A DNA stretch of 64,000 bases from a virus (IMGVR_UViG_3300017971_000228:1-64000); one strand, 5' to 3'; counted from the first letter of the stretch, positions 26,186 through 51,134 are shown. Notes: generated by a model from the letters alone, not told the origin. Program-made: numbers and translations.

Positions 26186-26605
26186 ATGCCCATTGGAGCC
26201 TTCGATCATATTACCGATTACTTCCCCGGAGTGAACGCATCTCCGGACATGACTGCTAAGCAGTACTACTCGGTGTACCTGGCCAGTGCGACGCAGGTGA
26301 CACTCCCGGACGGATCGGCGTCTGAGTGCCCCATCGGCATCCTTCAGAACGAGCCGGGGTCGGGCATGACGGCCCAGGTGGCCTACCGACCCGGTGACAT
26401 CTGCAAAGCCTTTGCGAGCGTTTCTACATGCCAGATCACCTACTGGAACCCACTCTACGCTGACTCCAGCGGGTATGTCATTCGGCAGGCGACGGCTGGT
26501 TGTCCCGCCTTCGCACGGGCGTTGGTGTCCACTACGGCATCAGGCGTGATCCCGGTCATGCTGTGCAACCCCTGGCGGGTAACTACACCCAGCCTCAACA
26601 GCTAA
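26186..26605 (+). CDS. Capsid cement/decoration protein, copy 1
   Basis: DMTAKQY...PIGILQNEP...LYADSSG; position before MCP. Confidence 0.7.
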   Translation: MPIGAFDHITDYFPGVNASPDMTAKQYYSVYLASATQVTLPDGSASECPIGILQNEPGSGMTAQVAYRPGDICKAFASVSTCQITYWNPLYADSSGYVIRQATAGCPAFARALVSTTASGVIPVMLCNPWRVTTPSLNS

Positions 26606-26619
26606 GGGGGTAAGGGACT

Positions 26620-27039
26620 ATGCCAATCGGGGCGTTTGACCACATAACTGACTACTACCCAGGCGTAAGTGCATCCATCGACTTGACGGCGAAGCAGTAC
26701 CATGCGATGTACCTATCCAGTGCAACTACGGTGACCATTGCCAGGGGTTCGGCTTCGGAGGTCCCGGTAGGGATTCTCCAGAACGAGCCGAACACGGGGC
26801 ATACGGCGCAGGTAGTGTACCGAGAGGGGGACATCTGCAAGGCGTTCGCCAGCGTGACTACTTGCGACATTTCCTACTGGGATGCGCTCTACTCCGATTC
26901 CAGTGGGTACGTCATCAAGCAGGCAACGTCAGGATGTCCGGCCTTCTGCCGGGCCTTGGTAGCGACTACGGCTTCGGGCGTGATTCCCGTCATGGTGTGC
27001 AACCCATGGCGGATCACCACGGCCAGCCACAAGACGTAA
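26620..27039 (+). CDS. Capsid cement/decoration protein, copy 2
   Basis: Same length (139 aa) and highly similar to 26186-26605. Confidence 0.7.
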   Translation: MPIGAFDHITDYYPGVSASIDLTAKQYHAMYLSSATTVTIARGSASEVPVGILQNEPNTGHTAQVVYREGDICKAFASVTTCDISYWDALYSDSSGYVIKQATSGCPAFCRALVATTASGVIPVMVCNPWRITTASHKT

Positions 27040-27082
27040 TTCAACGAATCCTGAGTGATGGACGGATGAGGGGCTGAAGGGT

Positions 27083-27292
27083 ATGAGTAGAGTACAGGTG
27101 AGCTACGTTCATGGGGAGCATCCTTCCACCAGGACGGAAAGCCTGGAGGGATTGAAGGTTGGATTTGAATTTGACGATCCGCGTGATGGAATGTTCAAGA
27201 TCTGGGCGAACAGTGAGGGCAAGGAACAGACATTCTTTGTCCGTGAATCGAATGTAATCTGTTGGGATATTGAGATCGACAAGGCGCGGTGA
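27083..27292 (+). CDS. Hypothetical protein
   Basis: ORF with RBS between decoration genes and MCP. Confidence 0.5.
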   Translation: MSRVQVSYVHGEHPSTRTESLEGLKVGFEFDDPRDGMFKIWANSEGKEQTFFVRESNVICWDIEIDKAR

Positions 27293-27344
27293 ACCGAGAG
27301 GGGGGTTCATCATTTCAGGTGTAGGGCACATAGGAGGATAACCA

Positions 27345-28307
27345 ATGCCCTCACCAACTCTCAAAGATTTGCATGTTAACAGCGTGCTAACGGAGATGTC
27401 CATCGCCTATCGGAACGATGCGTACATCGCAGACCGGGTTTTTCCCTTGGTCAATGTTGACAAACAGTCTGATATCTATGCTCTGTACACCAAGCAAGAC
27501 TGGTTCCGAGACGAGGCGCAGCGGCGTGCTCCGGGTGAAGAGGTGAAGACTAGTGGGTGGAACGTTGACACAACGAACACCTACTACTGCATCAACTACG
27601 CTCTGGGCAAGGACATCCCTGACGAAATCGCCGCCGGCGCAGATGACGTGTTCGACCTGGACCGGGACGCCACCATCTTCGTGACGGACAAGCTGCAGCT
27701 CAGGCGTGAGATCGAGTGGGCGGCAGACTTCTTCACCACGGGCGTGTGGGGAACGGATGCCACCTTCAGTGCCACCACACGGTGGAATGTGTACGCCAGC
27801 TCGGATCCACTGAGCGACGTGCATGACGGCATCGAGACCGTTCTACAGAATACGGGCAAGCGGCCCAACAAGTTCGTCATGGGCTACCAGGTGTTCAATG
27901 AGTTGCTGGACCACCCGGACATCCTGGATCGGATCAAGTACGGGGCGAGTTCCGGCAATCCGGCAGTGACCACGGAGATGGCACTGGCGCAGCTCTTCGG
28001 CGTGGATGAAGTGCTGGTAGCACGGGCCATCAAGACCACGAATATCGAGAAGAACGAATCGCCTACCATGAGCTTCGTGTGGGGGCAGCATGCGCTGCTT
28101 CTGTACGTGGCGCCACGGCCCAGCAGGCTGGAACCCAGTGCGGGCTACACCTTCGTGTGGAACCCGATGGGCGGACGCGGCCCTCAGATTATCAATCAGA
28201 GGCGTGATTCGGCCCGACACTGCGACGTGGTGGAAGCCATTGGGTACTGGGATTCGAAGCGTACCGCACAGGATTGTGGATATTTCTTCTCATCGGTCAC
28301 GGCGTGA
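27345..28307 (+). CDS. Major capsid protein
   Basis: LTEMSIAYRN..IADRVFP, RRAPG, KRPNKFVMG..LLDHPDI, PSAGYTF; AGGAGG RBS. Confidence 0.88.
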   Translation: MPSPTLKDLHVNSVLTEMSIAYRNDAYIADRVFPLVNVDKQSDIYALYTKQDWFRDEAQRRAPGEEVKTSGWNVDTTNTYYCINYALGKDIPDEIAAGADDVFDLDRDATIFVTDKLQLRREIEWAADFFTTGVWGTDATFSATTRWNVYASSDPLSDVHDGIETVLQNTGKRPNKFVMGYQVFNELLDHPDILDRIKYGASSGNPAVTTEMALAQLFGVDEVLVARAIKTTNIEKNESPTMSFVWGQHALLLYVAPRPSRLEPSAGYTFVWNPMGGRGPQIINQRRDSARHCDVVEAIGYWDSKRTAQDCGYFFSSVTA

Positions 28308-28439
28308 GTTCTTAACGAATCTTTGGATGGTAACATCACCATCCGAGTATTCATCGTACTGACCGAAGCGGAGTGCGGTCTGTTTCACTCCGCATGACCG
28401 GGCCTCGGCGGTCTGTCTCCGGGGCAGGGATAACAACTC

Positions 28440-29495
28440 ATGAACAAATTCCGACGAACAACGCAACTCAACGGTCCGCTGACCGTTGGCTACAGTGATA
28501 CCGGCTATGACGTGGTGATGTATGGAGCCACGGCAGGCTGCAATGTCACCTGGGATGAGTCGGCGGATGAACTAGATATCAGCGCCACCACGGAAATCCA
28601 GGCGGCGCACAAGCTACAGTTCCGTGATACGGCCATCTTCCTCCAGTCAGGGGCGGATGGGCAGCTCGACATCGACGCCGATGGCAAGATTGATCTGGCT
28701 TCTGCCTCCATCACCATGACGGGTGAAGTCAATATCACCGGATCGCTGAACGTCACCGGGTCGCTGTCCATGACGGCAGCTTCGACCAACCTGAGCGGTG
28801 AACTCAACGTCACTGGGTCGGCGGATCTGTCATCGAGCATGAATGTGTCAGGGTGTGCGACCTTTGAAGATGCCGTTGGGATCACCAAGAACCTCAACGT
28901 AGCGGGGTCTTCCCTCTTCGGAAGCAGCGCCAGCTATAGTAGCTTTGACGCTGACGGCACGCTGACGATGACTGGTACGGCGCGGGTCATCAAGTCTCTG
29001 TGGCTCCAGCCGCGTGATGTTCGAGCCGATGTCAATGGCAACTGGACAGCAGGTTCTAATGCCAACGCGTCTACTTTCGCTTGGCAATACGGAAGCTCTG
29101 GCACGGCGGGATGTGCCCAGATCGGCTTTGCTGTACCGACGGACATGGATACTACGGCAACGGGCTGTGTAGACGTGCTGTGGTCGGCAGGGTGCGTAGC
29201 TGCGGCCAACGCCTCGATGAACATCACCTATCTCTACTATGGCATCGGGGACGGATCGACACCGGGTGGTACGGGCACACTCACAGGGGCGGAGGGATCG
29301 GGTACAGGTGGAGCCAGTGCCTTTGAGTATACGAACGTGACGGACGCACTGGTAGCACCGGCAGCAAGCACGCGGCACATGACGCTTACGCTCTGCTACA
29401 CACCCAACACAGCTCAGTCAAGTGCAGGGTCTACCTTCCAGCTTAACGGGATGGTCGTCAAGTACCTCTCGAACAAGCTCGGAACAGCGACGTAG
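28440..29495 (+). CDS. Virion fibre/decoration-like protein (Ser/Thr/Gly-rich beta repeats)
   Basis: GSLNVTG-type repeats; ends KYLSNKLGTAT. Confidence 0.65.
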   Translation: MNKFRRTTQLNGPLTVGYSDTGYDVVMYGATAGCNVTWDESADELDISATTEIQAAHKLQFRDTAIFLQSGADGQLDIDADGKIDLASASITMTGEVNITGSLNVTGSLSMTAASTNLSGELNVTGSADLSSSMNVSGCATFEDAVGITKNLNVAGSSLFGSSASYSSFDADGTLTMTGTARVIKSLWLQPRDVRADVNGNWTAGSNANASTFAWQYGSSGTAGCAQIGFAVPTDMDTTATGCVDVLWSAGCVAAANASMNITYLYYGIGDGSTPGGTGTLTGAEGSGTGGASAFEYTNVTDALVAPAASTRHMTLTLCYTPNTAQSSAGSTFQLNGMVVKYLSNKLGTAT

Positions 29496-29503
29496 GGGGG
29501 TGA

Positions 29504-30226
29504 ATGATGGAGAAAGATAGACGTCAACGCAACATCCTGGGACCGATGACGGTCGGTATGGATGATTCCGGCCACGACGTGACCTTCTACGGCGCAACGG
29601 CAGGCAGTAAGCTACTGTGGGATGAATCAGCGGACAAGCTGTACGTCCAGGGGATTCTCAATACCACGGGGGCAGTCACACTGGAGGGGGCGGGCAGGGT
29701 CTACAAGGAAAAATGGTTCGGGGCCCGTGAGTTCGATGTCACGGCTTCGGGCGCGACAGCGGGGCAGTATAGCTCTTCCATGCCCACCATCACCATCACC
29801 TCAACGAACTCGAACAATACCTTCGAAGATGTCTACGTCTGGGCACCGACACCTGATGACCTGGACACGACGGCCTGCATGACGGCCTACTGCTGGTGGT
29901 CCTGTGATACGGCAACCGGGGGTGATGCGCACTCTACCAGCCAGTATTCACAGATGGCGCTGCAGTGGGGCCACTACGCCGCTGGAGAGGCGTCACCGGC
30001 GACGACAGCTTCTACGGACGTAGCCAAGTTCATCGCAGCCAGTTCCGGCGCGAACTATATGACCAAGAGCACACTGACTTCCTCAGTCGATCCGCCTTCA
30101 GCGGGGGAGATGATGGGATTCAAGCTCCGAGTTTGGTCTAGTGGAAGTGCGACAACTGGCTCTGACATGCAGGTGCATGGCCTACAGATTCGGTATAGGG
30201 CGAACAAGCTGGGAACAGCGACGTAG
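29504..30226 (+). CDS. Virion fibre/decoration-like protein, paralogue
   Basis: N-terminus GP.TVG..D.G.DV..YGATAG....WDESAD shared with 28440; ends RYRANKLGTAT. Confidence 0.65.
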   Translation: MMEKDRRQRNILGPMTVGMDDSGHDVTFYGATAGSKLLWDESADKLYVQGILNTTGAVTLEGAGRVYKEKWFGAREFDVTASGATAGQYSSSMPTITITSTNSNNTFEDVYVWAPTPDDLDTTACMTAYCWWSCDTATGGDAHSTSQYSQMALQWGHYAAGEASPATTASTDVAKFIAASSGANYMTKSTLTSSVDPPSAGEMMGFKLRVWSSGSATTGSDMQVHGLQIRYRANKLGTAT

Positions 30227-30229
30227 CCT

Positions 30230-31923: not shown

Positions 31924-32496
31924 ATGTCAGGGAAATCAGCTCCGCATCGGCAGGGCGCAGTATCGGCATGCACCAGTGGCTCGGAAGTGGCCCCCATGCT
32001 CATGGGGGGGATGTACATCGCCAGTCCATCAGCAGTCACGGATTTGGATGTCACGTGGGCGCTGACGGATTCCTACGGTCGGCTTCTGGTAGTCCCAACT
32101 GCCTATGACGGCAACTCTTCTGGGACGCTACTGGCTAGTGCCAGCCGCATATCCAGTAGCAACAGTGGGGACTTGACCAATCGAGGAGCCAGGGGTGCTG
32201 TTGTGTGGATGGACATCAGTGCCACGACCGCTGTGTCAGGTTCAGACAACTTGACGCTGGCAGTAGAAGCCAAGAACCCCGTCAGCGGCTGCTATCACAA
32301 CATGCTGGTATCAGCTTCGCTGACGGCTGTTGGGGCGTATATGTACGTTGTCTACCCCACGGGTGCATCTTGCATGACCACTGAGGAAGTGACGGAAACG
32401 GTAAGCCTGCCACTTCCCAGAACCTGGCGGGTAAACATCGCGGCGGACAGTGGGTGTTCGTTTACCTACTCACTGGGGTATGAGTATTTGATCTAG
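31924..32496 (+). CDS. Putative virion structural protein
   Basis: S/A/T/C-rich beta protein; NRGARGA...LPLPRTWRV. Confidence 0.6.
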   Translation: MSGKSAPHRQGAVSACTSGSEVAPMLMGGMYIASPSAVTDLDVTWALTDSYGRLLVVPTAYDGNSSGTLLASASRISSSNSGDLTNRGARGAVVWMDISATTAVSGSDNLTLAVEAKNPVSGCYHNMLVSASLTAVGAYMYVVYPTGASCMTTEEVTETVSLPLPRTWRVNIAADSGCSFTYSLGYEYLI

Positions 32497-33326: not shown

Positions 33327-36300
33327 ATGCCCTTTCTGAAGCAAGCTACTGCGGCCTGCCTGATGATGGGGCCGTTCGTGTCGGAGGATGACGGTTATTC
33401 AGCCTGCAATGACATTTCCATTGACGCCTCCATGGTACTCTTATCAAAGGCAGGCGCAGCTATAGCTGCCATGAACTCATCCACTAGCCCAGAACACTCA
33501 GGGAGTGGGTACTTCCAGGTTACGCTGGACACGACGGATACCGGAACGCTGGGAACCCTGAAGGTCGCAGTTAGCGTTAGTCCGACTCTTCCGGTCTGGG
33601 AGACCTATGATGTGCTGAGTTCCTGCGTCTGGGATGCCTGGTTCTCCGACGGCGCCAAGATGACGGTGGATGTGGACGGCGGGGTAGTCAGTGCATCAGA
33701 TCTGGTCAGCGCTTCAGACATCACCAGTGCGGTGATTCCAGCATCCAACATAGATGCCCAGATGAGTACGCTGGCGACGGCAGCAGGTGTTATCAGTGCT
33801 TCGGATGTCCTGGCAGCTTCCGATGTTCAGGCCAGTGCCTGCGCTGCCCTTTCAGCCTACAAGTTGGATCACTTGGTCTTTGAGGCAGATGCCGACGATC
33901 CTGCCGATAACTCCATCATCGCCAAGTTGGCTGCTTCGGGTGGAGACTGGAGTACTTTCACGGCTAGTCTAAACTCCCTTGAGGCGATGACGGATAATCA
34001 ATCAGACATTGTCACAGACACAGCTGAGATAGGTGCCGCAGGGGCCGGGCTTACGGCCGTACCATGGAATAGCGACTGGGATACCGAAGTCGAATCAGAA
34101 GTCGATGATGCCCTGGGGGGTGGTACTGGAACTGCTTTGACGGCCGTACCCTGGAACAGCGATTGGGACGCAGAGGTCCAGTCCGAAGTCAATGATGCCT
34201 TGGTAGCGTTGAAGCTGGATCACCTCATCGCTACATCAGAGGCCGATGACCCAGTAAACAACTCGATCATAGCGAAGCTGGCAGCTTCCGGGGGCGACTG
34301 GAGTACCTTTACCGCCAGTCTAAACTCACTGGAAGCCATTACGGACGACGTGGGCGATGTCAACGCTGCTACCGGAATCAGCGCCAGTGACGTGCTGAGT
34401 TCCAGCGATCTGGACAAAGCCCTGACAGACATCAACCTGGATCACCTGCTGAAGACGGCGACGGCCGGTTCAGATATGACCACCGAAGTCGCTGACAATA
34501 CCGTCATGGCCCGAATCCTGGCCAATGGTGACACTTCGGCCTTCGATCAGGGAACTGACGGACTACAGCTGATTCGAGACAAGCTAACGGACATTGAGAC
34601 TGATACCGGGGAAATTGGCGCTGCAGGGGCGGGCCTGACCCAGCTCGGGGGCATGGCAACCTCCATGATGGCAGAAGTGCAGTCTGAAGCGAATGATGCG
34701 CTAGTCGCCTTGAAGTTGGATCATCTAGTTGCAGCCGCTGAGAGTGACGATCCGGTAGACAATTCAATCATCGCCAAACTGGCAGCGAGTGGTGGTGATT
34801 GGAGCACGTTCACAGCAAGCCTGAATGCTCTGGAAGCGTTGGCAGATAATCAATCAGACATCGTAACGGATACGGCGGAGATAGGTGCGGCAGGTGCTGG
34901 GCTCACAGCCGTGCCCTGGAACAGTGATTGGGACACGGAAGTTGAGTCAGAAGTCGATGACGCACTGGGCGGTGGAACCGGGACAGCCTTGACGGCGATT
35001 CCCTGGAACTCTGACTGGGATACTGAGGTACAGTCCGAAGTGAACGACGCACTGGTAGCCTTGAAGCTAGATCACCTCATCGCCACCTCGGAAGCTGATG
35101 ACCCGGCGGACAATTCCATCATCGCCAAGCTCGCAGCCAGTGGGGGTGACTGGAGTACCTTTACCGCTAGCCTGAATTCACTGGAAGCTATCACGGATGA
35201 CGTGGGCGACATCAGTGCCGCCCAGAGTATCGCTGCATCTGATGTGCTAAGCTCTAGTGACTTGGACAAGGCACTGACCGACATCAATCTGGATCACCTA
35301 CTCAAGACAGCCACCGCTGGGTCAGATATGACGACTGAGGTGGCAGACAATACGATCATGGCCCGAATCCTGGCGAATGGCGATACATCAGCCTTCGATC
35401 AGGGGACTGACGGACTGCAACTGATCCGAGACAAGCTAACGGATATCGAGACGGACACCGGGGAGATTGGAGCCGCCGGGGCAGGTCTGACACAACTGGG
35501 CGGCATGGCAACCTCGATGATGGCAGAAGTGCAAAAAGAGGTTGACGACGCGCTAGTAGCTCAGAAGCTAGATCATCTAGTAAACGTAGCCGACAGCGAT
35601 GATGCGGCCGACAATTCACTGATAGCGAAGCTGGCGGCCAGTACGGGCGACTGGAGTGACTTCACGGGAAGCCTCAACTCGCTGGTGGTCATCACGAACA
35701 ACCAGGCCAACATTGAGACTGATACCGCAGAAATAGGCGCGGCTGGTGCCGGACTCACGCAACTGGGCGGATTATCAACCTGCATGATGGCTGAAGTTCA
35801 AAGCGAAGTCAACGACGCCCTGGTGGCAGTGAAGCTGGACCACCTCGTCTTCGCAGCGGAAACAGATGATGCGGCCGACAACTCTATCATCGCCAAGCTC
35901 GCTGCGTCAACAGGCGATTGGAGCGACTATACAGCCAGCTTGAATTCGATGGTCATCCAGACCACGAATCAGGCCAATATCGAAGCGGATACTCAGGATC
36001 TACAGTCACAGATCGGAACTGCGGGGGCCGGTCTCACGCAGTTGGGTGGTATGGCTACTTCTATGATGGCGGAAGTCCAGTCAGAAGTCAACGATGCTCT
36101 TGTGGCTCTGAATCTGGACCACCTGCTGGCCACAGCAACGGCTGGCTCGGACATGACGACAGAGGTAGTGGACAATACCATCCTGAGTAGGGTACTGGCC
36201 AATGGAGATACTTCAGCCTTTGACCCGACTACGGACGGGTTGCAGCTCATCAGAGACAAGCTATCAGACATTGAAACGGATACTGGAGAGATAGGTACGG

Positions 36301-37574
36301 CCGGGGCGGGGTTGACCCAACTCGGCGGAATGTCCACATCCATGATGGCTGAAGTGCAAAGTGAAGCCAATGATGCTTTGGTTGCCCAGAAGTTGGATCA
36401 CCTAGTCGCTGTAGCTGATGGCGATGATCCGGTCAATGATTCTATCATCGCCAAGATCACTGCCAGCACCGGTGACTGGAGTGACTTCAGCGCAAGCACC
36501 CAGTCCCTGGTTGTGCTGGCGACCAACCAGGCAAACATCGAGACCGATACGGCCGAAATAGGTACGGCGGGGGCTGGCCTTACCCAACTGGGCGGACTCT
36601 CCACCTGCGCTATGGCTGAAGTCCAGAAGGAAGTTGATGACGGTCTGGTTGCACAGAAACTGGACCACCTGGTTAACGTAGCTGACTCTGATGATCCTGC
36701 CGACAATTCCATCATGGCGAAGCTGGCTGCGTCGGGTGGGGACTGGAGTACCTTCAGCCCCAGTTCTGACGCCCTGGAAGCTCTGGCGGACAACCAGTCC
36801 GATATCGTGACGGACACAGCAGAGATAGGCGCAGCCGGGGCAGGGCTGTCAGCGATTCCCTGGAACTCTGACTGGGACACGGAGGTGGAGTCAGAAGTTG
36901 ACGATGCGTTGGGCGGGGGTACGGGAACATCACTCACAGCTGTCCCGTGGAATAGCGACTGGGACACGGAAGTCCAGAGCGAGGTCAACGACGCGCTGGT
37001 TGCGCTCAAGCTAGATCACCTGGTAGCAGCATCGGAATCTGACGATCCCGTTGACAACTCCATCCTAGCCAAGCTGGCTGCCAGCGGAGGGGATTGGAGC
37101 GCCTTCAGTCCCTCAAGCGATGCTCTGGAAGCGGTGACTGACAATATCAACCAGGTCAGCACTGCGACCGGACTCAGTGCTTCAGATGTACTGAGTGCCA
37201 GTGATCTGATAGCGGCGTCGGACATCGCCGACGCAGTCTGGGATGAAACCAGCGCGGGGCATACCGATGCCGGCAAGGCCGGGCTACAGATGTGGACCGA
37301 CGTCGATGCCATCCTATCAGATACGGGAACGGACGGGGTGGTCCTATCTACGGCGACGCAGCAGTCCATTGCCGATGAAACGCTGAAGCGGGATGTGTCC
37401 AACGTAGAGAGCAGTGCTTGTGATCACTCGCTGACGACTATCGTTCTGGCCACACTGGAATCCAGTACGGCGGCCTCGGTCTGGACCATCAAGCAGACGG
37501 ATGGGTCCACAACCTACCAGACGAAGACACTGACGCTTGACGGCTCGGCGAGCGCGATCACTGGGGTGTCCTAG
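33327..37574 (+). CDS. 1415-aa modular repeat fibre/appendage protein
   Basis: Recurrent LDHL...DNSIIAKLAASGGDWS, DTAEIGAAGAGLT, PWNSDWDTEV and ANGDTSAFD modules. Confidence 0.8.
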   Translation: MPFLKQATAACLMMGPFVSEDDGYSACNDISIDASMVLLSKAGAAIAAMNSSTSPEHSGSGYFQVTLDTTDTGTLGTLKVAVSVSPTLPVWETYDVLSSCVWDAWFSDGAKMTVDVDGGVVSASDLVSASDITSAVIPASNIDAQMSTLATAAGVISASDVLAASDVQASACAALSAYKLDHLVFEADADDPADNSIIAKLAASGGDWSTFTASLNSLEAMTDNQSDIVTDTAEIGAAGAGLTAVPWNSDWDTEVESEVDDALGGGTGTALTAVPWNSDWDAEVQSEVNDALVALKLDHLIATSEADDPVNNSIIAKLAASGGDWSTFTASLNSLEAITDDVGDVNAATGISASDVLSSSDLDKALTDINLDHLLKTATAGSDMTTEVADNTVMARILANGDTSAFDQGTDGLQLIRDKLTDIETDTGEIGAAGAGLTQLGGMATSMMAEVQSEANDALVALKLDHLVAAAESDDPVDNSIIAKLAASGGDWSTFTASLNALEALADNQSDIVTDTAEIGAAGAGLTAVPWNSDWDTEVESEVDDALGGGTGTALTAIPWNSDWDTEVQSEVNDALVALKLDHLIATSEADDPADNSIIAKLAASGGDWSTFTASLNSLEAITDDVGDISAAQSIAASDVLSSSDLDKALTDINLDHLLKTATAGSDMTTEVADNTIMARILANGDTSAFDQGTDGLQLIRDKLTDIETDTGEIGAAGAGLTQLGGMATSMMAEVQKEVDDALVAQKLDHLVNVADSDDAADNSLIAKLAASTGDWSDFTGSLNSLVVITNNQANIETDTAEIGAAGAGLTQLGGLSTCMMAEVQSEVNDALVAVKLDHLVFAAETDDAADNSIIAKLAASTGDWSDYTASLNSMVIQTTNQANIEADTQDLQSQIGTAGAGLTQLGGMATSMMAEVQSEVNDALVALNLDHLLATATAGSDMTTEVVDNTILSRVLANGDTSAFDPTTDGLQLIRDKLSDIETDTGEIGTAGAGLTQLGGMSTSMMAEVQSEANDALVAQKLDHLVAVADGDDPVNDSIIAKITASTGDWSDFSASTQSLVVLATNQANIETDTAEIGTAGAGLTQLGGLSTCAMAEVQKEVDDGLVAQKLDHLVNVADSDDPADNSIMAKLAASGGDWSTFSPSSDALEALADNQSDIVTDTAEIGAAGAGLSAIPWNSDWDTEVESEVDDALGGGTGTSLTAVPWNSDWDTEVQSEVNDALVALKLDHLVAASESDDPVDNSILAKLAASGGDWSAFSPSSDALEAVTDNINQVSTATGLSASDVLSASDLIAASDIADAVWDETSAGHTDAGKAGLQMWTDVDAILSDTGTDGVVLSTATQQSIADETLKRDVSNVESSACDHSLTTIVLATLESSTAASVWTIKQTDGSTTYQTKTLTLDGSASAITGVS

Positions 37575-38132: not shown

Positions 38133-38145
38133 GGGGATTATCATT

Positions 38146-39622: not shown

Positions 39623-40801
39623 GTGCGGTTGCGATTTCTGTTCGTAGTAGCGGACAGCGCCCGCGAATGGAACTGTTCGGAATGGCGGGTGGCAATCCCG
39701 ATGAGGGCGATTAACAACACAGAGGGTCACAGCGCAGTGGCGATAAACTGGGAGCAATTCGGGCATTTTGAGAGACCGGATGTCCAAGACGTGGTTATGC
39801 CGGCGGATCTGGTGATCTACCAGCGGAATCTCTTTTGTGAACCGTACTTCTCAGCCGTCGAGTACTTCCAGGGGCTGGGCAAGCCGTTCATCCTGGACCT
39901 GGACGACTCCTATCCCATCTTGCCCTGGAGCAACCCAGCCCATGGGTTCTGGATCCAGAACGTCCGGAAGATGGACCCGGAGCCGCTGAAGGGGCTGGAG
40001 ATCGGGGTACAGCTGGTGGACGCGGTGTCGAGTCCCAGCAAGATGATCTGCCAGGACTGGGCGCATCTGAACACGCCGATCTGGCTACCCAACTTCGCAG
40101 AAGGTGGATGGTACAAGGACTTGCCGGGCAAGGCGGAAGAACTGAAGGACCGGATTGTCATTGGCTGGGGGGGCAGCATCAGCCACTATGATGGGTTCTG
40201 GCTCTCAGGGGTGCGGCAGGCGCTGGAGAACATCTGCCAACGAAGACCGGAGGTACTGTTCAAGTTCTGCGGGAACGACGGGCGAATCTATCTCCAGCTT
40301 CCGGTAGGTACATCGCAGAAGATGTGGCAGCAGGGGGTGCCGCCCAGCCAGTGGCCCAAGGTCATCTCTACCTTCGACATCGGGCTGGCGCCGCTAGACC
40401 TTATCGGGGGGTATGAATCACGCAAGAGCTGGCTGAAGGGGCTGGAGTACATGCTGGCAAAGGTGCCCTGGATAGGTAGCGATGGGCCATCCTACAGCGA
40501 CCTGCGGCATCATGGGCTGATGGTAGGCAACAGCCCGGCAGAGTGGGAAGAGGCACTGGAATACATGATAGACCATCTCGAAGAGGAGAAGGAGAAGGCG
40601 GCGGGTGAACCCTATGAATGGGCGCAGACGCTGACGATGGAGAACAACGTAGGGTTCTACGTTCAACTGGCACAGAAGATGGCGGGGCTAAGGTCGGCGG
40701 CAATGGGGCTGCCGGGGTTAATGCACGTAGGGGCGAAGCGACCGATAAGCGTGAAGGACGTGACACCACTGGAGGATCTGATCTATGTCAAAGCTGCTTG
40801 A
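39623..40801 (+). CDS. Glycosyltransferase (GT-B, GT4-like)
   Basis: WRVAIP, YQRN, DLDD, LPN, IGWGGSISH, DIGLAPL, KSWLKGLEY. Confidence 0.85.
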   Translation: MRLRFLFVVADSAREWNCSEWRVAIPMRAINNTEGHSAVAINWEQFGHFERPDVQDVVMPADLVIYQRNLFCEPYFSAVEYFQGLGKPFILDLDDSYPILPWSNPAHGFWIQNVRKMDPEPLKGLEIGVQLVDAVSSPSKMICQDWAHLNTPIWLPNFAEGGWYKDLPGKAEELKDRIVIGWGGSISHYDGFWLSGVRQALENICQRRPEVLFKFCGNDGRIYLQLPVGTSQKMWQQGVPPSQWPKVISTFDIGLAPLDLIGGYESRKSWLKGLEYMLAKVPWIGSDGPSYSDLRHHGLMVGNSPAEWEEALEYMIDHLEEEKEKAAGEPYEWAQTLTMENNVGFYVQLAQKMAGLRSAAMGLPGLMHVGAKRPISVKDVTPLEDLIYVKAA

Positions 40802-40994
40802 CGTTGAGGGGTTGCTGGACGAACGGGAGCCGCTGCAGCGCGGGGTATACCAGTTCGTGACGACTTGGTATGAACGACTGAAGCTAGAATACGAAGGAGT
40901 GAATCTGGGAGAATGCCTACAATACAACCTGAGCCAACTGTGCAACCATCGGGTGCTGGCGGAGATGGAGAAGGCACGGGCCAAACCGCTGTGA
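40785..40994 (+). CDS. Hypothetical protein (possible N-terminal partner of the next gene)
   Basis: LEYEGVNLGECL; overlaps both neighbours. Confidence 0.5.
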   Translation: MSKLLDVEGLLDEREPLQRGVYQFVTTWYERLKLEYEGVNLGECLQYNLSQLCNHRVLAEMEKARAKPL

Positions 40995-42265
40995 AGCCGG
41001 TCATCGTCCTGAGTGGGGGGCCCGCGGTCGTTCCCCTGGTAGCGAAGTTCGACGGGGACGGGAAGGTGACGGACCCGCTACTGTCGGGGGAGTACGATCT
41101 GGCATTCCTGTACCCGCAGGTAGCAGACCAGTTCAGGGGACGGGGACTGGAGTGCTTCAAGATTGACGACGGGACGACGGGGCAGGACAACAACGACGCT
41201 ATCAACTGGGCAGTTCAGAAGGCGATGCCGCTTCTGGCGTCACTGAAGGGTAGAAAGCAAAGCCGAATACGGGAGTGCTTCCCGCAGGACCAGCGGATTC
41301 TCAAAGTGGTGAGCGGGGGGTTGCTGGACTGGATGCCGGGGTACGTGGTCTCGTCGATGGCGCGGATGCACATGCGCATCACGGTCTGGAAGCGGTTCTG
41401 GGATTCGCATGACGTCCGGCTGGTGGTGACGCACGAGGACGTGGCAGAGGACACGAAGGCCCTGGTGCAGTTTGCCAGGGCGCAGGGAACGCCGACGCTG
41501 CACGTGCCGCACTTCAACCATGGCAGTCTGCCGAGGCCCATGCCGGACCTACATGACTCTATCAACTGTGACTACGCAGCGGTAGCAGGGACCTACATGC
41601 GGGGGTGGCTGGCGGAGAGGGGCATGGACCCGGACCATATCCGCATCACGGGGCATCCTGCCTGGGACCGATACGCGCACATCAACCCGGACCGCTACTG
41701 GGCGCGGGCGATGATGCGGCTGAATCCGGCAAGGAAAGCGGTCTGCTATGCAGCGGACTGGGTGCTCTGGACGACGCTATGCTACCACGAGCATACCCCG
41801 CAGGCAGGGTGGCGGGCGATGCTGGGAGCAGCCAAGGCGCTGACTCAGGAGGGGTGGATACTCATCTGCAAGGCACACCCGGGGGCCAAGGAGACCAACG
41901 CGGCATGGCACGCTAAGACAGCGGAGGACACAGGCGTGGAATGCGTGGTCACTGACAGGCATCTGGATGTGGTGCTACAGGCTGCGGATGTGTTTGTGAG
42001 CAACGGATTCTCAAACATCATCGCTGAAGCGGCCATGGCGGGGGTGCCGGGCATCACGCTGGGGCCGGGGTATCTGGATGAACCGGCGGTGCCGGGGGTA
42101 GAGTACGATGCGGAGGCGCTGTACCTGAAGATCAAGGAGGTCCAGGCGACCAGGGAGGCATGGCAGGAGAAGTTGCTGCCGGCTTTCATGACTCGCTTCG
42201 TCGGGCCGAATGACGGGCAGGCAGCGGATCGCATCGTGGAGTGGTGTCGGGAGTTGGCAGGATAA
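40991..42265 (+). CDS. GT-B fold protein (capsule-synthesis / CDP-glycerol transferase / epimerase-like); candidate CMP-nonulosonate transferase
   Basis: HVPH, ITGHPAWD, CKAHPG, SNIIAEA...GVP, DGQAADRI. Confidence 0.65.
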   Translation: MKPVIVLSGGPAVVPLVAKFDGDGKVTDPLLSGEYDLAFLYPQVADQFRGRGLECFKIDDGTTGQDNNDAINWAVQKAMPLLASLKGRKQSRIRECFPQDQRILKVVSGGLLDWMPGYVVSSMARMHMRITVWKRFWDSHDVRLVVTHEDVAEDTKALVQFARAQGTPTLHVPHFNHGSLPRPMPDLHDSINCDYAAVAGTYMRGWLAERGMDPDHIRITGHPAWDRYAHINPDRYWARAMMRLNPARKAVCYAADWVLWTTLCYHEHTPQAGWRAMLGAAKALTQEGWILICKAHPGAKETNAAWHAKTAEDTGVECVVTDRHLDVVLQAADVFVSNGFSNIIAEAAMAGVPGITLGPGYLDEPAVPGVEYDAEALYLKIKEVQATREAWQEKLLPAFMTRFVGPNDGQAADRIVEWCRELAG

Positions 42266-42273
42266 GCTGACCT

Positions 42274-42351
42274 AACGGAATAGTCTAGCGGACTTATCGG
42301 GCGACCGCGTCTCTCTGTCCTTGGGGGCAGGGGGTGGTCGCCTTTGTTTTT
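42274..42351 (+). terminator. Terminator/antiterminator leader, copy 3
   Basis: AACGGAATAG...GCGG-ACTTATC-GGGCGA-CCGC; GGGCGACC/GGTCGCCT stem followed by TTGTTTTT. Confidence 0.7.
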
Positions 42352-42363
42352 GAGGAGGATCCA

Positions 42364-42819
42364 ATGCCGCACGTACACGGCAAGAACGTCGATGTGAAGA
42401 TACTGGACGTGGACGCTGTAGAGCAGAACATCACGTCGGACGGCAACAGCGTCACGCTCACCTGGACAAATGATATCGCTGAACTTAGGGCCTTTGGTGC
42501 GGCGGCACTGGAGAAGCTGGAAGGTGTCCCGGACTGGGGCTGGGAGTTCGCCGGATACTACCATACCACGGCATCGCAGATAGACGAGATTCTGGGCAAC
42601 ATCGCTACCTGCGTGTCCAGTTCTACAGCCGCCTGCATTGCCTTCGGGGGTGCGGGGGCGACGGAAGTGGGGTGTCCCTTCTGGTATGGCAACTGTATTC
42701 TGGCAGAGTATGCAGTCGAAGCACCGTCTGACGGGCCGGTGACGGTAACAGCCACTTTCGCGGGCAGTGGTGCTCTATCGCGGGCAGCCATCGCCGCTGG
42801 CGGGTCCTGGACTCCATAA
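42364..42819 (+). CDS. Tail tube protein, copy 1
   Basis: HVHGKN...ELRAFG...LEG..DW..EFAG...YAVEAPSDGPVTVTATFAGSG. Confidence 0.8.
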   Translation: MPHVHGKNVDVKILDVDAVEQNITSDGNSVTLTWTNDIAELRAFGAAALEKLEGVPDWGWEFAGYYHTTASQIDEILGNIATCVSSSTAACIAFGGAGATEVGCPFWYGNCILAEYAVEAPSDGPVTVTATFAGSGALSRAAIAAGGSWTP

Positions 42820-42840: not shown

Positions 42841-43266
42841 ATGCCACACGTGCATGGTAAGAACGTAGACCTGAAGATCATCACCGTAGACGGCAGTCTC
42901 CGCCGGATCGAAACCGACGGCAACTCTGTCACGCTGACCTGGACCAACGACATCGCTGAGCTGCGACCTTTCGGGGCAGCGGCCATGGAGAAGCTGGAGG
43001 GGGTGCCTGACTGGAACTGGGAGTTTGCAGGCTACTACCACACGGCAGCCAGCCAGATTGACGAGCATCTGGCCAACATCGCCACCTGCGTGTCCAGCTC
43101 TACATCGGCATCCATCGCCTTTGGCGGAAGCACGGCAGGCTGCCCGATGTGGTACGGCAACTGTATTCTGTCGGAGTATGCCGTGGAAGCGCCAAGTGAC
43201 GGGCCGGTGACGGTGACAGCTACTTTTGCGGGAAGCGGGGCGTTGAGCCGAGCTGCAGTAGCCTAG
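42841..43266 (+). CDS. Tail tube protein, copy 2
   Basis: Near-identical paralogue of 42364-42819. Confidence 0.8.
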   Translation: MPHVHGKNVDLKIITVDGSLRRIETDGNSVTLTWTNDIAELRPFGAAAMEKLEGVPDWNWEFAGYYHTAASQIDEHLANIATCVSSSTSASIAFGGSTAGCPMWYGNCILSEYAVEAPSDGPVTVTATFAGSGALSRAAVA

Positions 43267-46575: not shown

Positions 46576-46941
46576 ATGGCTAGTGCATGTGCAACCTATC
46601 TGGGCATCGCGGGGGCTTCAGCCCTGCTGCCCGACCCGGTAGTGTGCAACCGGGAGTTGCTGAGGATCGGCACCTACCGTCGGATGGCGGATTCGACGCT
46701 GCGCTATGACTACTCCGGCAGTGGCCTGCGCTGGCAGCTGGGGTGGCAGCTACTGGATGGGACGAACAAGGCGACGCTACAGGCGGAAGCAGAACGGACG
46801 GCGAGCATGCTCTTCAGCCCGCCGACGGCGGGCACCTGCTGGAACGTGCTGGTGATGAATTACGCTGAAGAGGCCGTCCCCATGGCGGGGGGAACGGTGC
46901 GCTGGAATGCGACCCTCACAGTGGAAACGGTAGACGACTGA
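46576..46941 (+). CDS. Distal tail protein
   Basis: Follows tape measure; RRMADSTLRYD. Confidence 0.6.
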   Translation: MASACATYLGIAGASALLPDPVVCNRELLRIGTYRRMADSTLRYDYSGSGLRWQLGWQLLDGTNKATLQAEAERTASMLFSPPTAGTCWNVLVMNYAEEAVPMAGGTVRWNATLTVETVDD

Positions 46942-48488
46942 TGGCGCAGAGCATCGCCGGCACGAGTCTGTGCGCCAACGCCATATCACACAACCGCAAG
47001 GTGCTATGCCAGGTGGACGTGGCCTGGGGGCAGACCTGGGCTACCCTGTCAGCCTCGGACTGGGTAGACGAAAGCGCCCACGTCCTGGCGGTAGACGGCA
47101 ATATGTCGCTGGCGGAACCGGGGGTGGGACTCACCCGAACGGGCGCAGCGGACGTCAACACGGCTCGGGTGACGCTGCGGAACTACGACAACCGTTACAG
47201 CCCCTGGAACACGAACAGCGCCATCTATGCCTCCACCTGTGGCGGGCAGCTCTTCATGACGCCTATCTCTGTCTGCGTCGGATTTGACGCCGCCGGCACA
47301 CCGGAGATGCTGCACCAGTTCGCTGGCGTCATCGCGCGACCCACAGAAGAAACCATCTCCAAGACGGCGACATGGGAATGCAAGGACCGAAGCTGGACCT
47401 TTCGGTCCACGAAATATGCCACCAGCGTCTGTACGGACATCACGCCTGACGCCTATCTGGGAGCACTGTGTACCCAGGCCAGCATTGCAGCAGCGGATCG
47501 GACCTTTGATGAGGGATCGCTGAGCTTTCCCTACGCCTGGATGGATGAAGAGAACATCGCCGCAGAGATGCAGGACGTGGCCCAGGCGGATGGGGGGATG
47601 CTGTACTTCAACAAGTCCGGCAGCCTGATCTATGAGAACATCAATCACTGGCTATCGGATACTGACTGCATTGACACGGCGGGAACCTTCGACTTCACGG
47701 TAAGCGACTTCCAGGAATTGCAGCCGGAGTTCACGCACAATGAAGTCTACTCAGGTGTCATTGTCGAACAGAACGTGCGAGAGCGGGGGGCCATCCATAC
47801 CGTCTATTCGCGGACGGACCCCATCTACATCGAGCCTGCGGGAACCCAGACCATCAAGTGCCGGCTGAACAAGCCCATATTATCATTGGAGACACCGGAA
47901 GAGGATACGGACTATCTGATCATGACGGGGGGCGGGCGCAAGGTGTCGGGGAGCGTAAGCATCACGTCCACTTCCTACGCCCAGCAGGTAGACGTGACCT
48001 TTACGAACTCTTCCAGCGCCTACGGCATGTATATCACGCGATTCGAGTTGCGGGGGGAGGCGCTGTGGGGTGGCCCCGTGGCGGAGAGCAAGGAAGAATC
48101 GACCGGGGGCTACATCGAGGAAGAGAAGCTGCTGGAACTGAGGGGCAATTCCTACATCCAGCGGCAAGCCCAGGCGGACATGCTGGCCAAGTTCCTGCGG
48201 GATCGGACGGAACGGCCTCGGGAGATCTACCACCTGTCGGGGGTGCCGGGCATTCCCTGGCTGGAACTGACGGACCGTATCTCCATCACCGAGGCGGACT
48301 CGGGTATCACGGCCTGCGCCCACATCTTCGGGCTGGGGTGGCGATTCATCGGCGGTGCGGGGGCGCTCTATGAGCAGGACATCACGGCGGTGAACGCTGC
48401 GAACCTATTCCCCTATGATAGCGCAAGTTACTTTGTGATCGGTTCCTGCGAAATGAGCGGTAGCGACAGTGCAATCCTGGCGTATTAG
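46941..48488 (+). CDS. Tail tip / baseplate hub protein
   Basis: VTLRNYDNRYSPWN, GGMLYF..SG.L.Y, PWLELTDRI. Confidence 0.75.
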   Translation: MAQSIAGTSLCANAISHNRKVLCQVDVAWGQTWATLSASDWVDESAHVLAVDGNMSLAEPGVGLTRTGAADVNTARVTLRNYDNRYSPWNTNSAIYASTCGGQLFMTPISVCVGFDAAGTPEMLHQFAGVIARPTEETISKTATWECKDRSWTFRSTKYATSVCTDITPDAYLGALCTQASIAAADRTFDEGSLSFPYAWMDEENIAAEMQDVAQADGGMLYFNKSGSLIYENINHWLSDTDCIDTAGTFDFTVSDFQELQPEFTHNEVYSGVIVEQNVRERGAIHTVYSRTDPIYIEPAGTQTIKCRLNKPILSLETPEEDTDYLIMTGGGRKVSGSVSITSTSYAQQVDVTFTNSSSAYGMYITRFELRGEALWGGPVAESKEESTGGYIEEEKLLELRGNSYIQRQAQADMLAKFLRDRTERPREIYHLSGVPGIPWLELTDRISITEADSGITACAHIFGLGWRFIGGAGALYEQDITAVNAANLFPYDSASYFVIGSCEMSGSDSAILAY

Positions 48489-48499
48489 GGGAGACGGGC

Positions 48500-49927
48500 A
48501 TGCTTGAGTGGGAGGATCCGCCCTCATTCTCGTCATCACAATCCAGCGGCGTTAACGTGGTACTGAGTGCCACGAAGCTGCGGATGTTGAACAAGGACGT
48601 GGACTTCCTGCAGGGCAGGGCCGACGGGCCTCACACCGTCTTTGCGGGGACGTATTGCCAAGCGACGCCCTCATCTAGCGGGACGATCTGGGAAGGGTGG
48701 ATTCGGCACAAGAAGGACGCCCTGCGTTACGGTGCTTTCGTTGCGGGTTCTTCTTCGGCCAGCATCCAGATTGAGGGGGATGAGGATGCCTGGGAGACGC
48801 TGGCGACCTGTGACTTTGGGGAAGCGACGGGGGCCTGGGTGGAGATCGGGGCCAGTACGGACATCTCTTCAGCCTGCATCACCTCGGGGTGCTGGTATCG
48901 TATGCGGGTGGGGTTGAACGGTGCCGGGGGGTCCATCCATCTGGCGATGCTGGAAGAGACCTGCCCGATTCAGGGATGGGTAGCACCACCTACTTTCTCG
49001 GCATGTACGGAAGATCTGGCTGCCAGTCTGAACACACTCCGCGATGACCTGAATGCGCTGAAGGCCAATAGTGATGCGCCTTTCGGGGCCTTCGGCGGCA
49101 TGACTACGCCCATTGAAGATTCCACCGCTTCGGACGTATGGTACAAGGACGACTCCTACAACAACGCACCGCACTATGACAACTGCTACTTTGGTGGGGG
49201 GTTCTACTATCCCGCTTGGTCAGCGGGCAGTGCCTTTGTGAAGTATGTCTACAAAGTCGGCTCTGGCAGCCTCTCGGGCAGCATTTACGCTGATGCGGGG
49301 GCGGGGCTGTCAGGCGATGCAGAGGGCACCTTCTCCTGTTCTGAAGGGGATACATACGAAGGGAGGGTGAACATCACCGGCGTAGCGGATACGGCGGGGT
49401 GTCTGTGCCGTCTGAGGATGCGAATTGAGGCAGACCCATCAGCCTGTGGGGCAGATCAGTTCAACCTTCTGTACCTGAGTGTGTACGCTGATGAGACGGA
49501 TTCCATCGCGGGCTGTTCGTTGCGCCACTGGGAAAGCGGGTGTCACATCGACTTCGCCGACCTGAACATGACGGGCAGCCGGATGGATCTGCTGGACGGG
49601 GCGGGGAAGCTGGCCTACTGGCGCAATGCAGCCATCAAGCGGATAGGTATCACGACCCCCAACGAAAATGAGGGATTTCGCATTGGTCTTCACCGGCGAC
49701 GGGGGTTCCCTATCCTTCACTACTACAGCAACAGTGGTCATGAGAACCCCCACCTCAAGTTCCCCGATCCATCAGAGAATGACTGGCATACCCAGAAGCT
49801 GGACACGGTATTGGATACTTGGCACACGATAGATCTGGACCAGGTGCGGGGGTTGTACGAGGGCATGTACTACAATGCTGATGAGGTTGAAGTAGCGCAG
49901 GAGTGGGATGAGGGCCTGAATGCCTAA
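48500..49927 (+). CDS. Minor tail / receptor-binding protein
   Basis: W..PP.F...LSA.KL..L and W..PP.F...AASLNTLRDDL repeats; position. Confidence 0.6.
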   Translation: MLEWEDPPSFSSSQSSGVNVVLSATKLRMLNKDVDFLQGRADGPHTVFAGTYCQATPSSSGTIWEGWIRHKKDALRYGAFVAGSSSASIQIEGDEDAWETLATCDFGEATGAWVEIGASTDISSACITSGCWYRMRVGLNGAGGSIHLAMLEETCPIQGWVAPPTFSACTEDLAASLNTLRDDLNALKANSDAPFGAFGGMTTPIEDSTASDVWYKDDSYNNAPHYDNCYFGGGFYYPAWSAGSAFVKYVYKVGSGSLSGSIYADAGAGLSGDAEGTFSCSEGDTYEGRVNITGVADTAGCLCRLRMRIEADPSACGADQFNLLYLSVYADETDSIAGCSLRHWESGCHIDFADLNMTGSRMDLLDGAGKLAYWRNAAIKRIGITTPNENEGFRIGLHRRRGFPILHYYSNSGHENPHLKFPDPSENDWHTQKLDTVLDTWHTIDLDQVRGLYEGMYYNADEVEVAQEWDEGLNA

Positions 49928-50381
49928 GAAGGACACCACTCGCTGGATTGACCTTCCCTACCTGAGTGAGCGTGATGCGATTGACCTGATCCGTCGTAGT
50001 ACGGACAGTAGCGAGGCTGCAGTAGCGGCCAATTACACGCGGCAGGTGCTGTTCTACGTTCCCGGTGCTGCGGTTACGGGGACCAGTGTATCGGGGGAAC
50101 CGGTATGGCGCGGTGAGGATGGGATACCGCAACGGATTGACGCAAGGGCAAAGGGAACGCCGACAGGGGCGGCACTGCAGTATACCGTCAAGGCGGGGGG
50201 AACAACCGTCGGAACCGTCACCATTGCGGATGGAGCCACAGCGGGAACGACAAGCACCATGTCGGTGAACTCCATTGATCCCAACACGGCGATTACACTG
50301 GACTGCGATCAGGTAGGGTCTACCACGTCGGGTTCGGACGTGACCGTGACGCTGGAATGTCTGGTGGCGACAGAAAGCTAG
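49920..50381 (+). CDS. Minor tail protein
   Basis: PTGAAL...ITLDCDQVGSTTSGSDVTV. Confidence 0.6.
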   Translation: MPKKDTTRWIDLPYLSERDAIDLIRRSTDSSEAAVAANYTRQVLFYVPGAAVTGTSVSGEPVWRGEDGIPQRIDARAKGTPTGAALQYTVKAGGTTVGTVTIADGATAGTTSTMSVNSIDPNTAITLDCDQVGSTTSGSDVTVTLECLVATES

Positions 50382-50390
50382 GTAGAGCGA

Positions 50391-51134
50391 ATGGCAACGA
50401 CGTGCGTTATTTCATCATGTACCTATACCTACCTTTCCATCGCTGCAGGATGTCCGGGAGCGGGTTATGGTTCCTATGATGAAGCGTCCTCACCAGCCTT
50501 TTTCTCAGCAGCGAAGCCGACGACATACAAGATCGGTCAGATGGTATATGACAACGGGGCACAGCTTATCTACTACATCAACCGTTCATATCTGAGCTTT
50601 GATACGTCGGTCATTCCAGGAGCAATTCTGGGGGCTTCGCTTTGGCTCACCGGGGCAGCAGATTATGCACTCAGTGGTCCCTACTGTACCGGGACGTGTG
50701 GTGAAGACTTTGACGTAGAAGTATACCGCTTTGACTTTACACTAGACGCCAATGGTGACCTCGCTCCTGATGATGCCACAGGTTCAGCCAACTGGTATGG
50801 TGCCTTCGGGGATGCTGCCAGCCACGTAGGTACGCTATCATCCACATCTGCTGATTACTGGGAGTACGCTGCATCTTCCCTCTCGAACTTTGGTATGGAA
50901 ATCCCAGCTTCCATGATTGACACAGCAGGATGTACGAGATTCACATTGGTTTCATCACGAGATATCAGTGCAACTGATCCTGGCATCTCAGCGAGCGATC
51001 TGAATGCCTATGACTGGTGGTGGGGGGCTGTATGGGCTGCGGGTATGCACCCCACGAGCTATGGGGGAAGTGACGGTTGGCCACGTCTAGCAGTTACCTA
51101 TGCTGCAAGTGGAGGCTATGCCTGGATATTCTGA
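50391..51134 (+). CDS. Minor tail protein (DNRLRE-like carbohydrate-binding domain)
   Basis: RSYLSFDTSVIP...ASL, PRLAVTY. Confidence 0.55.
   Translation: MATTCVISSCTYTYLSIAAGCPGAGYGSYDEASSPAFFSAAKPTTYKIGQMVYDNGAQLIYYINRSYLSFDTSVIPGAILGASLWLTGAADYALSGPYCTGTCGEDFDVEVYRFDFTLDANGDLAPDDATGSANWYGAFGDAASHVGTLSSTSADYWEYAASSLSNFGMEIPASMIDTAGCTRFTLVSSRDISATDPGISASDLNAYDWWWGAVWAAGMHPTSYGGSDGWPRLAVTYAASGGYAWIF

Follow-up and report, generated by a model that had tools for sequence, protein, structure and literature searches.

Why a cysteine or a serine should recur behind two small residues in protein after protein of a phage particle is the question raised by IMGVR_UViG_3300017971_000228, an uncultured virus of which we analyzed the first 64,000 nucleotides (the window; coordinates count from its first letter, and proteins are named by the position of their genes in it). 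The window is the start of a 98,106-bp virus record that bears direct terminal repeats, and the genome is of the siphophage type. An earlier note on this DNA had proposed that the serines and cysteines in question are acceptor sites for O- and S-glycosylation. We find that the motif is confined to virion proteins and to the clade of this phage. Below, we set out the evidence for the motif and for the exchange of Ser and Cys within it, and weigh what these residues may do.

A small-small-[Ser/Cys] motif in accessory virion proteins

We defined the motif as [GAST][GAST] at positions -2 and -1 of a Cys (or Ser), with [SA][GAT][SC] as its compact form, and counted it in a virion set of 15 proteins and a non-virion set of 125 open reading frames (ORFs), 140 ORFs in all. 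The virion genes that bear on the question, with the major capsid protein (MCP) as the contrast case, are as follows (aa, amino acids; CBM, carbohydrate-binding module).

26186..26605, plus strand: head decoration-like protein, paralogue A, 139 aa, directly 5' of the MCP gene, with homologues at the same place in 32 related loci
26620..27039, plus strand: head decoration-like protein, paralogue B, 139 aa, 75% identical to paralogue A
27345..28307, plus strand: MCP (PHROG 1005, E=1e-85)
28440..29495, plus strand: fibre-like protein, 351 aa, with 5 of its 6 Cys in the motif
29504..30226, plus strand: paralogue of the 28440 protein, 240 aa, the N- and C-termini being common to both
31924..32496, plus strand: virion-block protein, 190 aa, with 4 of 4 Cys in the motif
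33327..37574, plus strand: repetitive fibre-like protein, 1415 aa, with 7 of 7 Cys in the motif
42334..42819, plus strand: tail tube, long paralogue, 161 aa (PHROG major tail protein), with Cys at the site that toggles between Ser and Cys
42841..43266, plus strand: tail tube, short paralogue, 141 aa (by PHROG), with Ser at the toggling site
46576..46941, plus strand: distal tail protein, 121 aa, 3 Cys, 2 in the motif
46941..48488, plus strand: tail tip protein, 515 aa, 11 Cys, 3 motif and 8 non-motif
48500..49927, plus strand: protein of three CBM-like beta-sandwiches, 475 aa, 13 Cys, 8 in the motif
50391..51134, plus strand: tail-end protein, 247 aa, 6 Cys, 5 in the motif

Within the virion set, 43 of 75 Cys stood in the motif, against 11.9 ± 3.1 expected from within-protein shuffles (z=10.0), and the non-virion set showed no enrichment (33 of 465, against 33.5 expected). 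Under a local null built on the composition of the ±4 neighboring residues, the virion counts were 43 versus 17.3 for Cys (z=7.7) and 133 versus 86 for Ser (z=6.1). With the giant protein left out and each paralogue pair reduced to a single member, z was 6.1 for Cys and 3.6 for Ser. The small-small context before Cys is thus enriched beyond composition, an outcome in favor of the earlier note's proposal. The preference also has a direction, Cys being 3.0x enriched after a small-small pair and 0.49x before one. In profile, position -2 is [S/A], position -1 is [G/A/T] and position -3 is often Thr, with no downstream preference. Codons vary synonymously at -2, -1 and 0, and TGC and TGT stand at 24:19, like the genome overall; therefore, the signal lies at the level of protein, not DNA.

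When the 140 ORFs were ranked by density of [SA][GAT][SC], the top 12 were all accessory virion proteins. Per 100 aa, the density was 0 in the MCP (which has 3 Cys, none in the motif) and in the scaffold, 0.11 in the tape measure and 0.41 in the portal. The sequence strings quoted in the earlier note were all found (YGATAGC and YGATAGS; SSSTAAC-IAF in 42334 and SSSTSAS-IAF in 42841; the repeats of the giant protein), and its Cys counts of 13 for the 48500 protein and one for the tape measure were right. Its description of the virion proteins as rich in Cys was wrong within this genome, where Cys makes up 1.6% of virion and 1.8% of non-virion residues (p=0.34). Among the virion residues of the phage, non-motif Cys account for 0.67%, which is the background level of its relatives, and motif Cys for another 0.90%. 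The motif Cys look like an extra class limited to a small clade.

Ser and Cys exchange at motif sites

We aligned eleven virion protein families, using the paralogues and relatives of 50-85% identity (L001, L102, P0002, P0003, P0006 and P0007), and two classes of cysteine emerged. The motif Cys occupied 37 columns, 22 of them variable, in which the partner residues were Ser (15), Gly (2), Asp (2), Thr (1), Asn (1) and Leu (1), and never Ala. The non-motif Cys occupied 35 columns, 21 of them variable, with Ala (9), Thr (4), Val (3), Leu (2) and Ser (2) as partners. In pairwise comparisons, Cys changed to Ser in 11 of 16 changes in context versus 2 of 14 outside it (p=0.004), and Ser changed to Cys in 6 of 24 versus 2 of 90 (p=0.001), which bears out the Ser/Cys swaps between paralogues that the earlier note had picked out and makes them specific to the context. 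Retention as either Ser or Cys reached 82% of alignment cells for context Ser and 62% for other Ser; the non-context Ser are more variable and yet almost never become Cys, which argues against neutral drift of Cys into loose loops.

We considered and rejected the possibility that the swaps mark the target of a diversity-generating retroelement. The reverse transcriptase model RVT_1 had no match in the genome, and the swaps draw on two Ser codon families, the Ser partners of motif Cys being encoded by both AGY and TCN codons; hence neither a single mutational route nor such an element lies behind them. The apparent equivalence of Ser and Cys at motif sites is well supported by these alignments.

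The tail tubes illustrate the exchange at a single site. The residue that follows S-S-S-T-A-A, within a nearly invariant segment, is Ser in eight and Cys in six of 14 sequences that are 60-83% identical, and it is nothing else in any of them. On the maximum-likelihood tree of these sequences, at least four switches between Ser and Cys are required, and three well-supported sister pairs are discordant. Such toggling argues against a thiol-only role, which would exclude Ser, and against a requirement for a mere small residue, which would admit Ala. Both tail tube paralogues are homologous to a solved tube, 'Antigen A' (8qhs, E=9e-8). Three members of the long tail tube type, with its AGGSWTP tail, are known, and the toggling site is Cys in each.

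Other families show the same exchange. The 28440 protein exchanges Cys and Ser at four motif columns when compared with relatives of 61-67% identity. It reads YGATAGC where its 29504 paralogue reads YGATAGS, and the two homologues of this pair in L001 show the same split (YGATSGC and YGATSGS). The repeats of the 1415-aa protein have the form GG[ML][AS]T-S-MMAEVQ four times and GGLST-C-[MA]MAEVQ twice, so that a unit ends in T-S or T-C, with Ser encoded by TCC, TCG and TCT and Cys by TGC. The AGTC of the 46576 protein corresponds to TSAS in L102. Each decoration paralogue has five Cys, of which two are motif Cys (VSTC and TAGC in 26186; VTTC and TSGC in 26620). In this family, three Cys of the phage stand opposite Ser (25 of 32) or Thr in the 32 relatives.

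Two further observations concern these families. In the decoration proteins, Cys73, which is not in the motif, takes the place of a Ser kept in 25 of 32 relatives, and Cys127 takes the place of a Thr; therefore, a change from hydroxyl to thiol occurs outside the small-small context too. In P0008, a 320-aa relative of the 28440 protein, the N-terminal module TG-DV-FYGATAG-x-WDESAD is present three times, with Q, A or S-A where the phage has Cys or Ser. The module is thus a repeatable unit, and in distant relatives the Ser/Cys site is no nucleophile.

The motif in related phages

To set the motif against its background, we used a comparison set of ~100 loci whose MCPs are 26-69% identical to that of the phage, taking the region from the MCP onward. 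These loci hold 216,946 aa and 1699 Cys (0.78%), and the virion Cys content of the phage is about twice this. Motif Cys numbered 170 in the related loci, against 195 expected, which is no enrichment, and the local null gave z=-0.6 for Cys and z=-0.2 for Ser. The picture was similar for 128 distant homologues of the 48500 protein, in which Cys made up 0.74% of residues and 55 stood in the motif versus 46.7 expected. (The 48500 protein has ~130 distant homologues in all, most of which cover its first domain.) Three close relatives of the 48500 protein, at ~70% identity, have 8 of 13, 8 of 15 and 7 of 14 Cys in the motif.

Searches of IMG/VR with the 48500 and 46941 proteins, the tail tube and both transferases of the tail operon yielded no further close relatives, and one metagenome scan for them returned only L102, a contig of 4.6 kb. 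When the sugar and glycosyltransferase genes were searched by tblastn against L001-L101, whose flanks end short of the tail operon, the only one found was NeuB, in L050 and L053. These NeuB homologues (30% identity) lie 5' of the MCP gene, at ~5461-6171 in L050 and ~5539-6249 in L053. In L001, the closest contig (MCP 69% identical), an ORF with a response-regulator receiver domain at 3-464 overlaps the decoration region and may reflect a mis-join or a prophage border.

Candidate enzymes and the case for glycosylation

Three genes of the window encode candidate transferases.

8028..8846, plus strand: glycosyltransferase of family GT2, 272 aa, in a sugar cluster (Pfam Glycos_transf_2, PF00535, 56.5 bits)
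39623..40801, plus strand: glycosyltransferase candidate, GT-B-like, inside the tail operon (PHROG 7162 'glycosyltransferase', E=2e-10)
40913..42265, plus strand: TagF-like enzyme with the CDP-glycerol glycerophosphotransferase fold, directly 5' of the tail tube genes (PF04464, 26.8 bits against a cut-off of 22.1)

The last two are flanked by the tail terminator region on one side and the tube genes on the other, and the 39623 protein is 25% identical to proteins annotated as glycosyltransferases in Streptomyces phage Zuko and Arthrobacter phage Atuin. The sugar genes present are NeuB, a DegT aminotransferase, a GNAT protein, a cytidylyltransferase and the GT2 enzyme 8028. Searches of PDB sequences with the three transferases gave no usable match, that of 8028 to 7msk being weak (E=0.058 over 58 aa).

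That the motif is restricted to virion proteins and to a single clade suggests an extrinsic factor more than rules of folding. Together with the transferase genes that adjoin the tube genes, and with the precedents of ThuS and O-GlcNAc transferase (OGT) discussed below, this leads us to prefer O-/S-glycosylation as the reading of the motif. The accessory virion proteins (the two decoration paralogues, the fibre-like proteins, both tail tubes and the distal tail proteins) would carry exposed [S/A]-[G/A/T]-[S/C] sequences at loop ends, where the selected feature would be the nucleophile of the side chain, the OH of Ser or the SH of Cys. Ser and Cys share a nucleophilic, hydrogen-bonding gamma atom, and Ala is without one. 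The sites would serve as acceptors for the phage transferases 39623 and 40913, and possibly 8028, with donors made by the phage's own nucleotide-sugar genes, and the resulting glycans would be O-linked on Ser and S-linked on Cys.

We tentatively hold acceptor sites for O-/S-glycosylation to be the best explanation of the motif, one that could well prove mistaken. The part of the earlier proposal that has stood is the equivalence of Ser and Cys. The use of the sites by a transferase, the identity of the enzyme and the sugar that it adds we infer from gene context, and the SunS-like role suggested for 8028 did not hold. A fuller version, in which the virion surface densely carries O- and S-linked glycans at its [S/A]-[G/A/T]-[S/C] loops, possibly nonulosonic acids and all made by the phage, and in which toggling between Ser and Cys switches between a cleavable and a hydrolase-resistant linkage, strikes us as doubtful.

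A number of results weigh against glycosylation. Some concern the residues themselves: Ala replaces context Ser no less often than Cys does (six times each); motif Cys, taken singly, are conserved no better than average residues; the motif Ser of the 48500 protein are not specific to loops, nine lying in secondary-structure elements and five in loops; and Gly has a similar upstream context, both here (z=4.6) and in the relatives (z=5.6). Moreover, the solved monocin-type tube 8qhs has, at the position of the tail tube site, a Cys that lies at the start of a strand and has no small-small context. The motif is missing from the MCP, the protein that is glycosylated in the mycobacteriophage Che8, and L050 and L053 show no motif enrichment despite bearing NeuB, though the structural proteins of both are Cys-rich (1.6% in L050). 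Other results concern the enzymes. The 8028 protein is not of the SunS family, its score against TIGR04195 being 19.7 bits over residues 5-52 only, against a cut-off of 350, and the 39623 protein matches Pfam Glyco_trans_1_4 under the cut-off, as a weak GT-B match. No Maf/MptE-like transferase (PF01973) was found in the 98-kb genome, in a search in which the controls matched, nor any family known for Cys-glycosylation of proteins or for protein nonulosonate transfer. Finally, no modification has been observed.

Predicted structures and alternative readings

We next consider where the sites lie in the folded proteins, using two AlphaFold2 models. That of the 48500 protein was built from a 65-row alignment (predicted local distance difference test, pLDDT, 87.6; predicted template modelling score 0.88), and that of the 28440 protein is weaker (pLDDT 68.8). 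The 48500 model consists of three beta-sandwich domains with fold matches to CBM22 and to Cry protoxin domains. Because its domains resemble carbohydrate-binding modules, the protein is probably a glycan-binding receptor protein. Its motif Cys lie in loops in seven of eight cases, and its non-motif Cys lie in strands in all five. In the 28440 model, a strand or helix begins at the residue after C34, C139 and C252; C225 and C243 are at the start of strands; the non-motif C319 is inside a strand. Over both models, 10 of 13 motif Cys fall outside helices and strands, and all six non-motif Cys fall inside strands; by a stricter count of residues in the interior of an element, the figures are 1 of 13 versus 4 of 6 (p=0.017). 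Burial of the motif Cys, which would have spoken against the earlier proposal, is thus not what the models predict. Surface or turn residues (D, N, G, T, S, Q and K) fill the motif columns in distant homologues, and core residues (Y, V, W and F) fill the non-motif ones.

These same models bring up a reading that involves no modification, namely that Ser or Cys closes a small-residue turn before a strand or helix, in the manner of an ST-turn or N-cap, and that Cys is common at such loop ends because the lineage is Cys-rich and lives in anoxic sediment. A strand or helix begins at the very next residue after five of the 13 motif Cys, and two more are at strand starts; D, N, G, T and S, all classic in turns and caps, occur in these columns in the distant homologues, and the alignment of the tail tube site with the strand-start Cys of 8qhs hints at a structural small-residue site at that position. 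In addition, Cys reaches 1.8% genome-wide, and the DNA comes from sediment samples. However, the non-virion proteins have turns and caps too and show 33 motif Cys versus 33.5 expected, and the ~100 relatives with homologous folds are not enriched. Caps should also accept Asp, Asn and Thr, yet within the close clade the partners are Ser in 15 cases versus four for these three residues together. Ala never appears at motif Cys columns though it is the commonest partner at non-motif ones, and Cys is a poor hydrogen-bond cap. We regard a purely structural role as possible but on the unlikely side.

A second alternative keeps the OH or SH nucleophile and changes the chemistry: phosphoglycerol, sulfate or another group might be attached through 40913, 24132 or 21080, or the residues might form autocatalytic ester or thioester cross-links between subunits. 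The equivalence of Ser and Cys indicates a nucleophile and not a particular donor, so it fits such schemes as well. Sulfatase-superfamily transferases add phospho-forms to pilin Ser, and radical SAM and sulfatase-superfamily genes lie in the head module of the phage, as the TagF-like gene adjoins the tube genes. But no enzyme here reaches the cut-off of a family named for protein modification, and 40913, 24132 and 21080 are equally explicable as sugar-tailoring enzymes. The best matches of the radical SAM protein 21080 are to RiPP (peptide made by the ribosome and modified after translation) and hopanoid methylase families, at 65-79 bits against cut-offs of 280-750. We consider these other chemistries improbable.

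Formylglycine formation was tried as a separate candidate and rejected. The signature (C/S)x(P/A)xR shows no enrichment, with 4 occurrences in 4793 virion aa versus 17 in 26152 aa elsewhere, the sulfatase-fold protein 24132 is without a (C/S)xPxR motif, and the radical SAM protein belongs to the B12-binding class, not to the SPASM or FGE maturases, and falls under every family cut-off.

A role specific to the thiol, as inter-subunit disulfides formed after release or as metal or mineral binding that would stabilize the virion or anchor it in sediment, is very improbable. Many Cys are exposed, the habitat is sediment, and five motif Cys of the 48500 protein are kept in its two 70% relatives. 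Ser, however, forms no disulfides and binds no soft metals, and its recurrence at motif Cys sites (in 15 of the 22 variable columns, with one site toggling at least four times) argues against both roles; the motif Cys are thus not the conserved, paired or metal-bound residues against which the earlier note had set its proposal. The Cys counts of the three close 48500 homologues, moreover, are odd or change singly (13, 15 and 14), and no thioredoxin-fold gene was found in the genome. An artefact of composition, repeats, paralogy, or DNA-level or mutational bias can be dismissed with near certainty, since, although A, S and T are raised 1.5-1.9x in the virion proteins and the giant-protein repeats inflate the Ser counts, z for Cys is at least 6 under shuffles, under the local null and after removal of the giant protein and paralogues, the codons vary synonymously and draw on two Ser families in a genome without a reverse transcriptase match, and relatives of the same composition show no signal.

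Genome and gene order

The remaining structural genes of the window are arranged in a head block and a tail block.

16097: portal, head block
19375: prohead protease, head block
25413: scaffold-like protein, head block
43927: tape measure, tail block
46576, 46941, 48500, 49920 and 50391: distal tail proteins, tail block

The distal tail genes are followed by an endolysin and a serine integrase. Between the prohead protease and the scaffold, window positions 21080-25262 encode the B12-binding radical SAM protein (443 aa), two ORFs without a family match and the sulfatase-superfamily protein. The first ~67 codons of the ORF at 37945-38676 are Arg-rich and look out-of-frame, so that its true start is probably an internal Met near residue 68. 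At the N-terminus of the 247-aa tail-end protein (window 50391-50460), three Cys fall within 21 residues, with a lipobox-like end, I-A-A-G-C, and without a basic n-region.

DNA matching the record was found in metagenomes from sediment and from marine-sediment studies. A megablast search of GenBank phages gave no match, and the MCP is at most 40% identical to those of cultured phages, which come from many hosts; therefore, a host cannot be inferred.

Discussion

The virion glycosylation of mycobacteriophages extends to the tail tube. The capsid of Che8 is reported to be glycosylated by an enzyme that the phage itself encodes (Freeman et al. 2023, cited in PMC13445384). Like Che8 and other mycobacteriophages, the phage studied here has glycosyltransferase genes of its own (matching PF00535, PF04464 and PHROG 7162), and the proposed targets are proteins of the virion surface. 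Unlike the Che8 type, it has a full sugar cluster of the nonulosonic-acid type and a loop motif spread over ~12 proteins, none of it in the MCP; Cys turns up in its sites as often as one would expect of an alternative acceptor; and it is known here from sequence alone. We consider this phage a candidate for phage-encoded virion glycosylation.

Precedents for the use of both residues come from two kinds of enzyme. ThuS, an O/S-glycosyltransferase, favors Cys above Ser, and S-links are resistant to chemical and enzymatic cleavage (PMC12457901). The proposal made here resembles the glycocin enzymes SunS, ThuS and GccA (PMC12457901) in that one enzyme would serve the OH of Ser or the SH of Cys, with acceptors in small-residue loops and a stabler thio-link. 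It differs from them in that the phage has no SunS-family enzyme, which places it outside the glycocin system because that family defines the system, and in that the proteins to be modified would be large, structural and assembled in the cytoplasm, whereas glycocins are small disulfide-stapled bacteriocins. OGT, in turn, tolerates the replacement of Ser by Cys (bioRxiv 10.1101/2023.07.31.551258). A GT-B O-glycosyltransferase that accepts a Ser-to-Cys swap, forming S-GlcNAc, parallels the equivalence seen here in evolution; the OGT case, unlike ours, is a laboratory substitution in eukaryotic substrates, and no homology to OGT was found here.

The preferences at -2 and -1 (S/A, then G/A) before Cys also recall the bacterial lipobox, [LVI][ASTVI][GAS]C. 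Unlike the lipobox, however, the phage motif often has Thr, rather than Leu, at -3, and Ser substitutes for Cys. We rejected a lipobox since 35 of 43 sites lie beyond residue 35 (8 of 43 within it), with up to eight per protein and no signal peptide.

To our knowledge, the only known instances of protein S-glycosylation are a few small bacteriocins and some engineered or rare eukaryotic examples, and phage virion glycosylation has been described only in a handful of actinophages, without a defined sequon. The motif predicts candidate sites on ~12 virion proteins, for which the comparison of motif with non-motif Cys and Ser offers an internal evolutionary control. If glycosylation were refuted, there would still be a well-documented, clade-specific structural Ser/Cys loop motif. 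If it holds, this phage would have a sequon-like motif over about a dozen proteins, in which Cys regularly serves as the alternative acceptor, and its S/O-transferase would belong to an unrecognized family; in the fuller version, it would be the first S-glycosylated virus particle and would bring with it a new protein S-glycosyltransferase unrelated to SunS. The motif would then provide a sequon for stable, thio-linked glycoconjugates, and modified virions could be recognized from their sequences.

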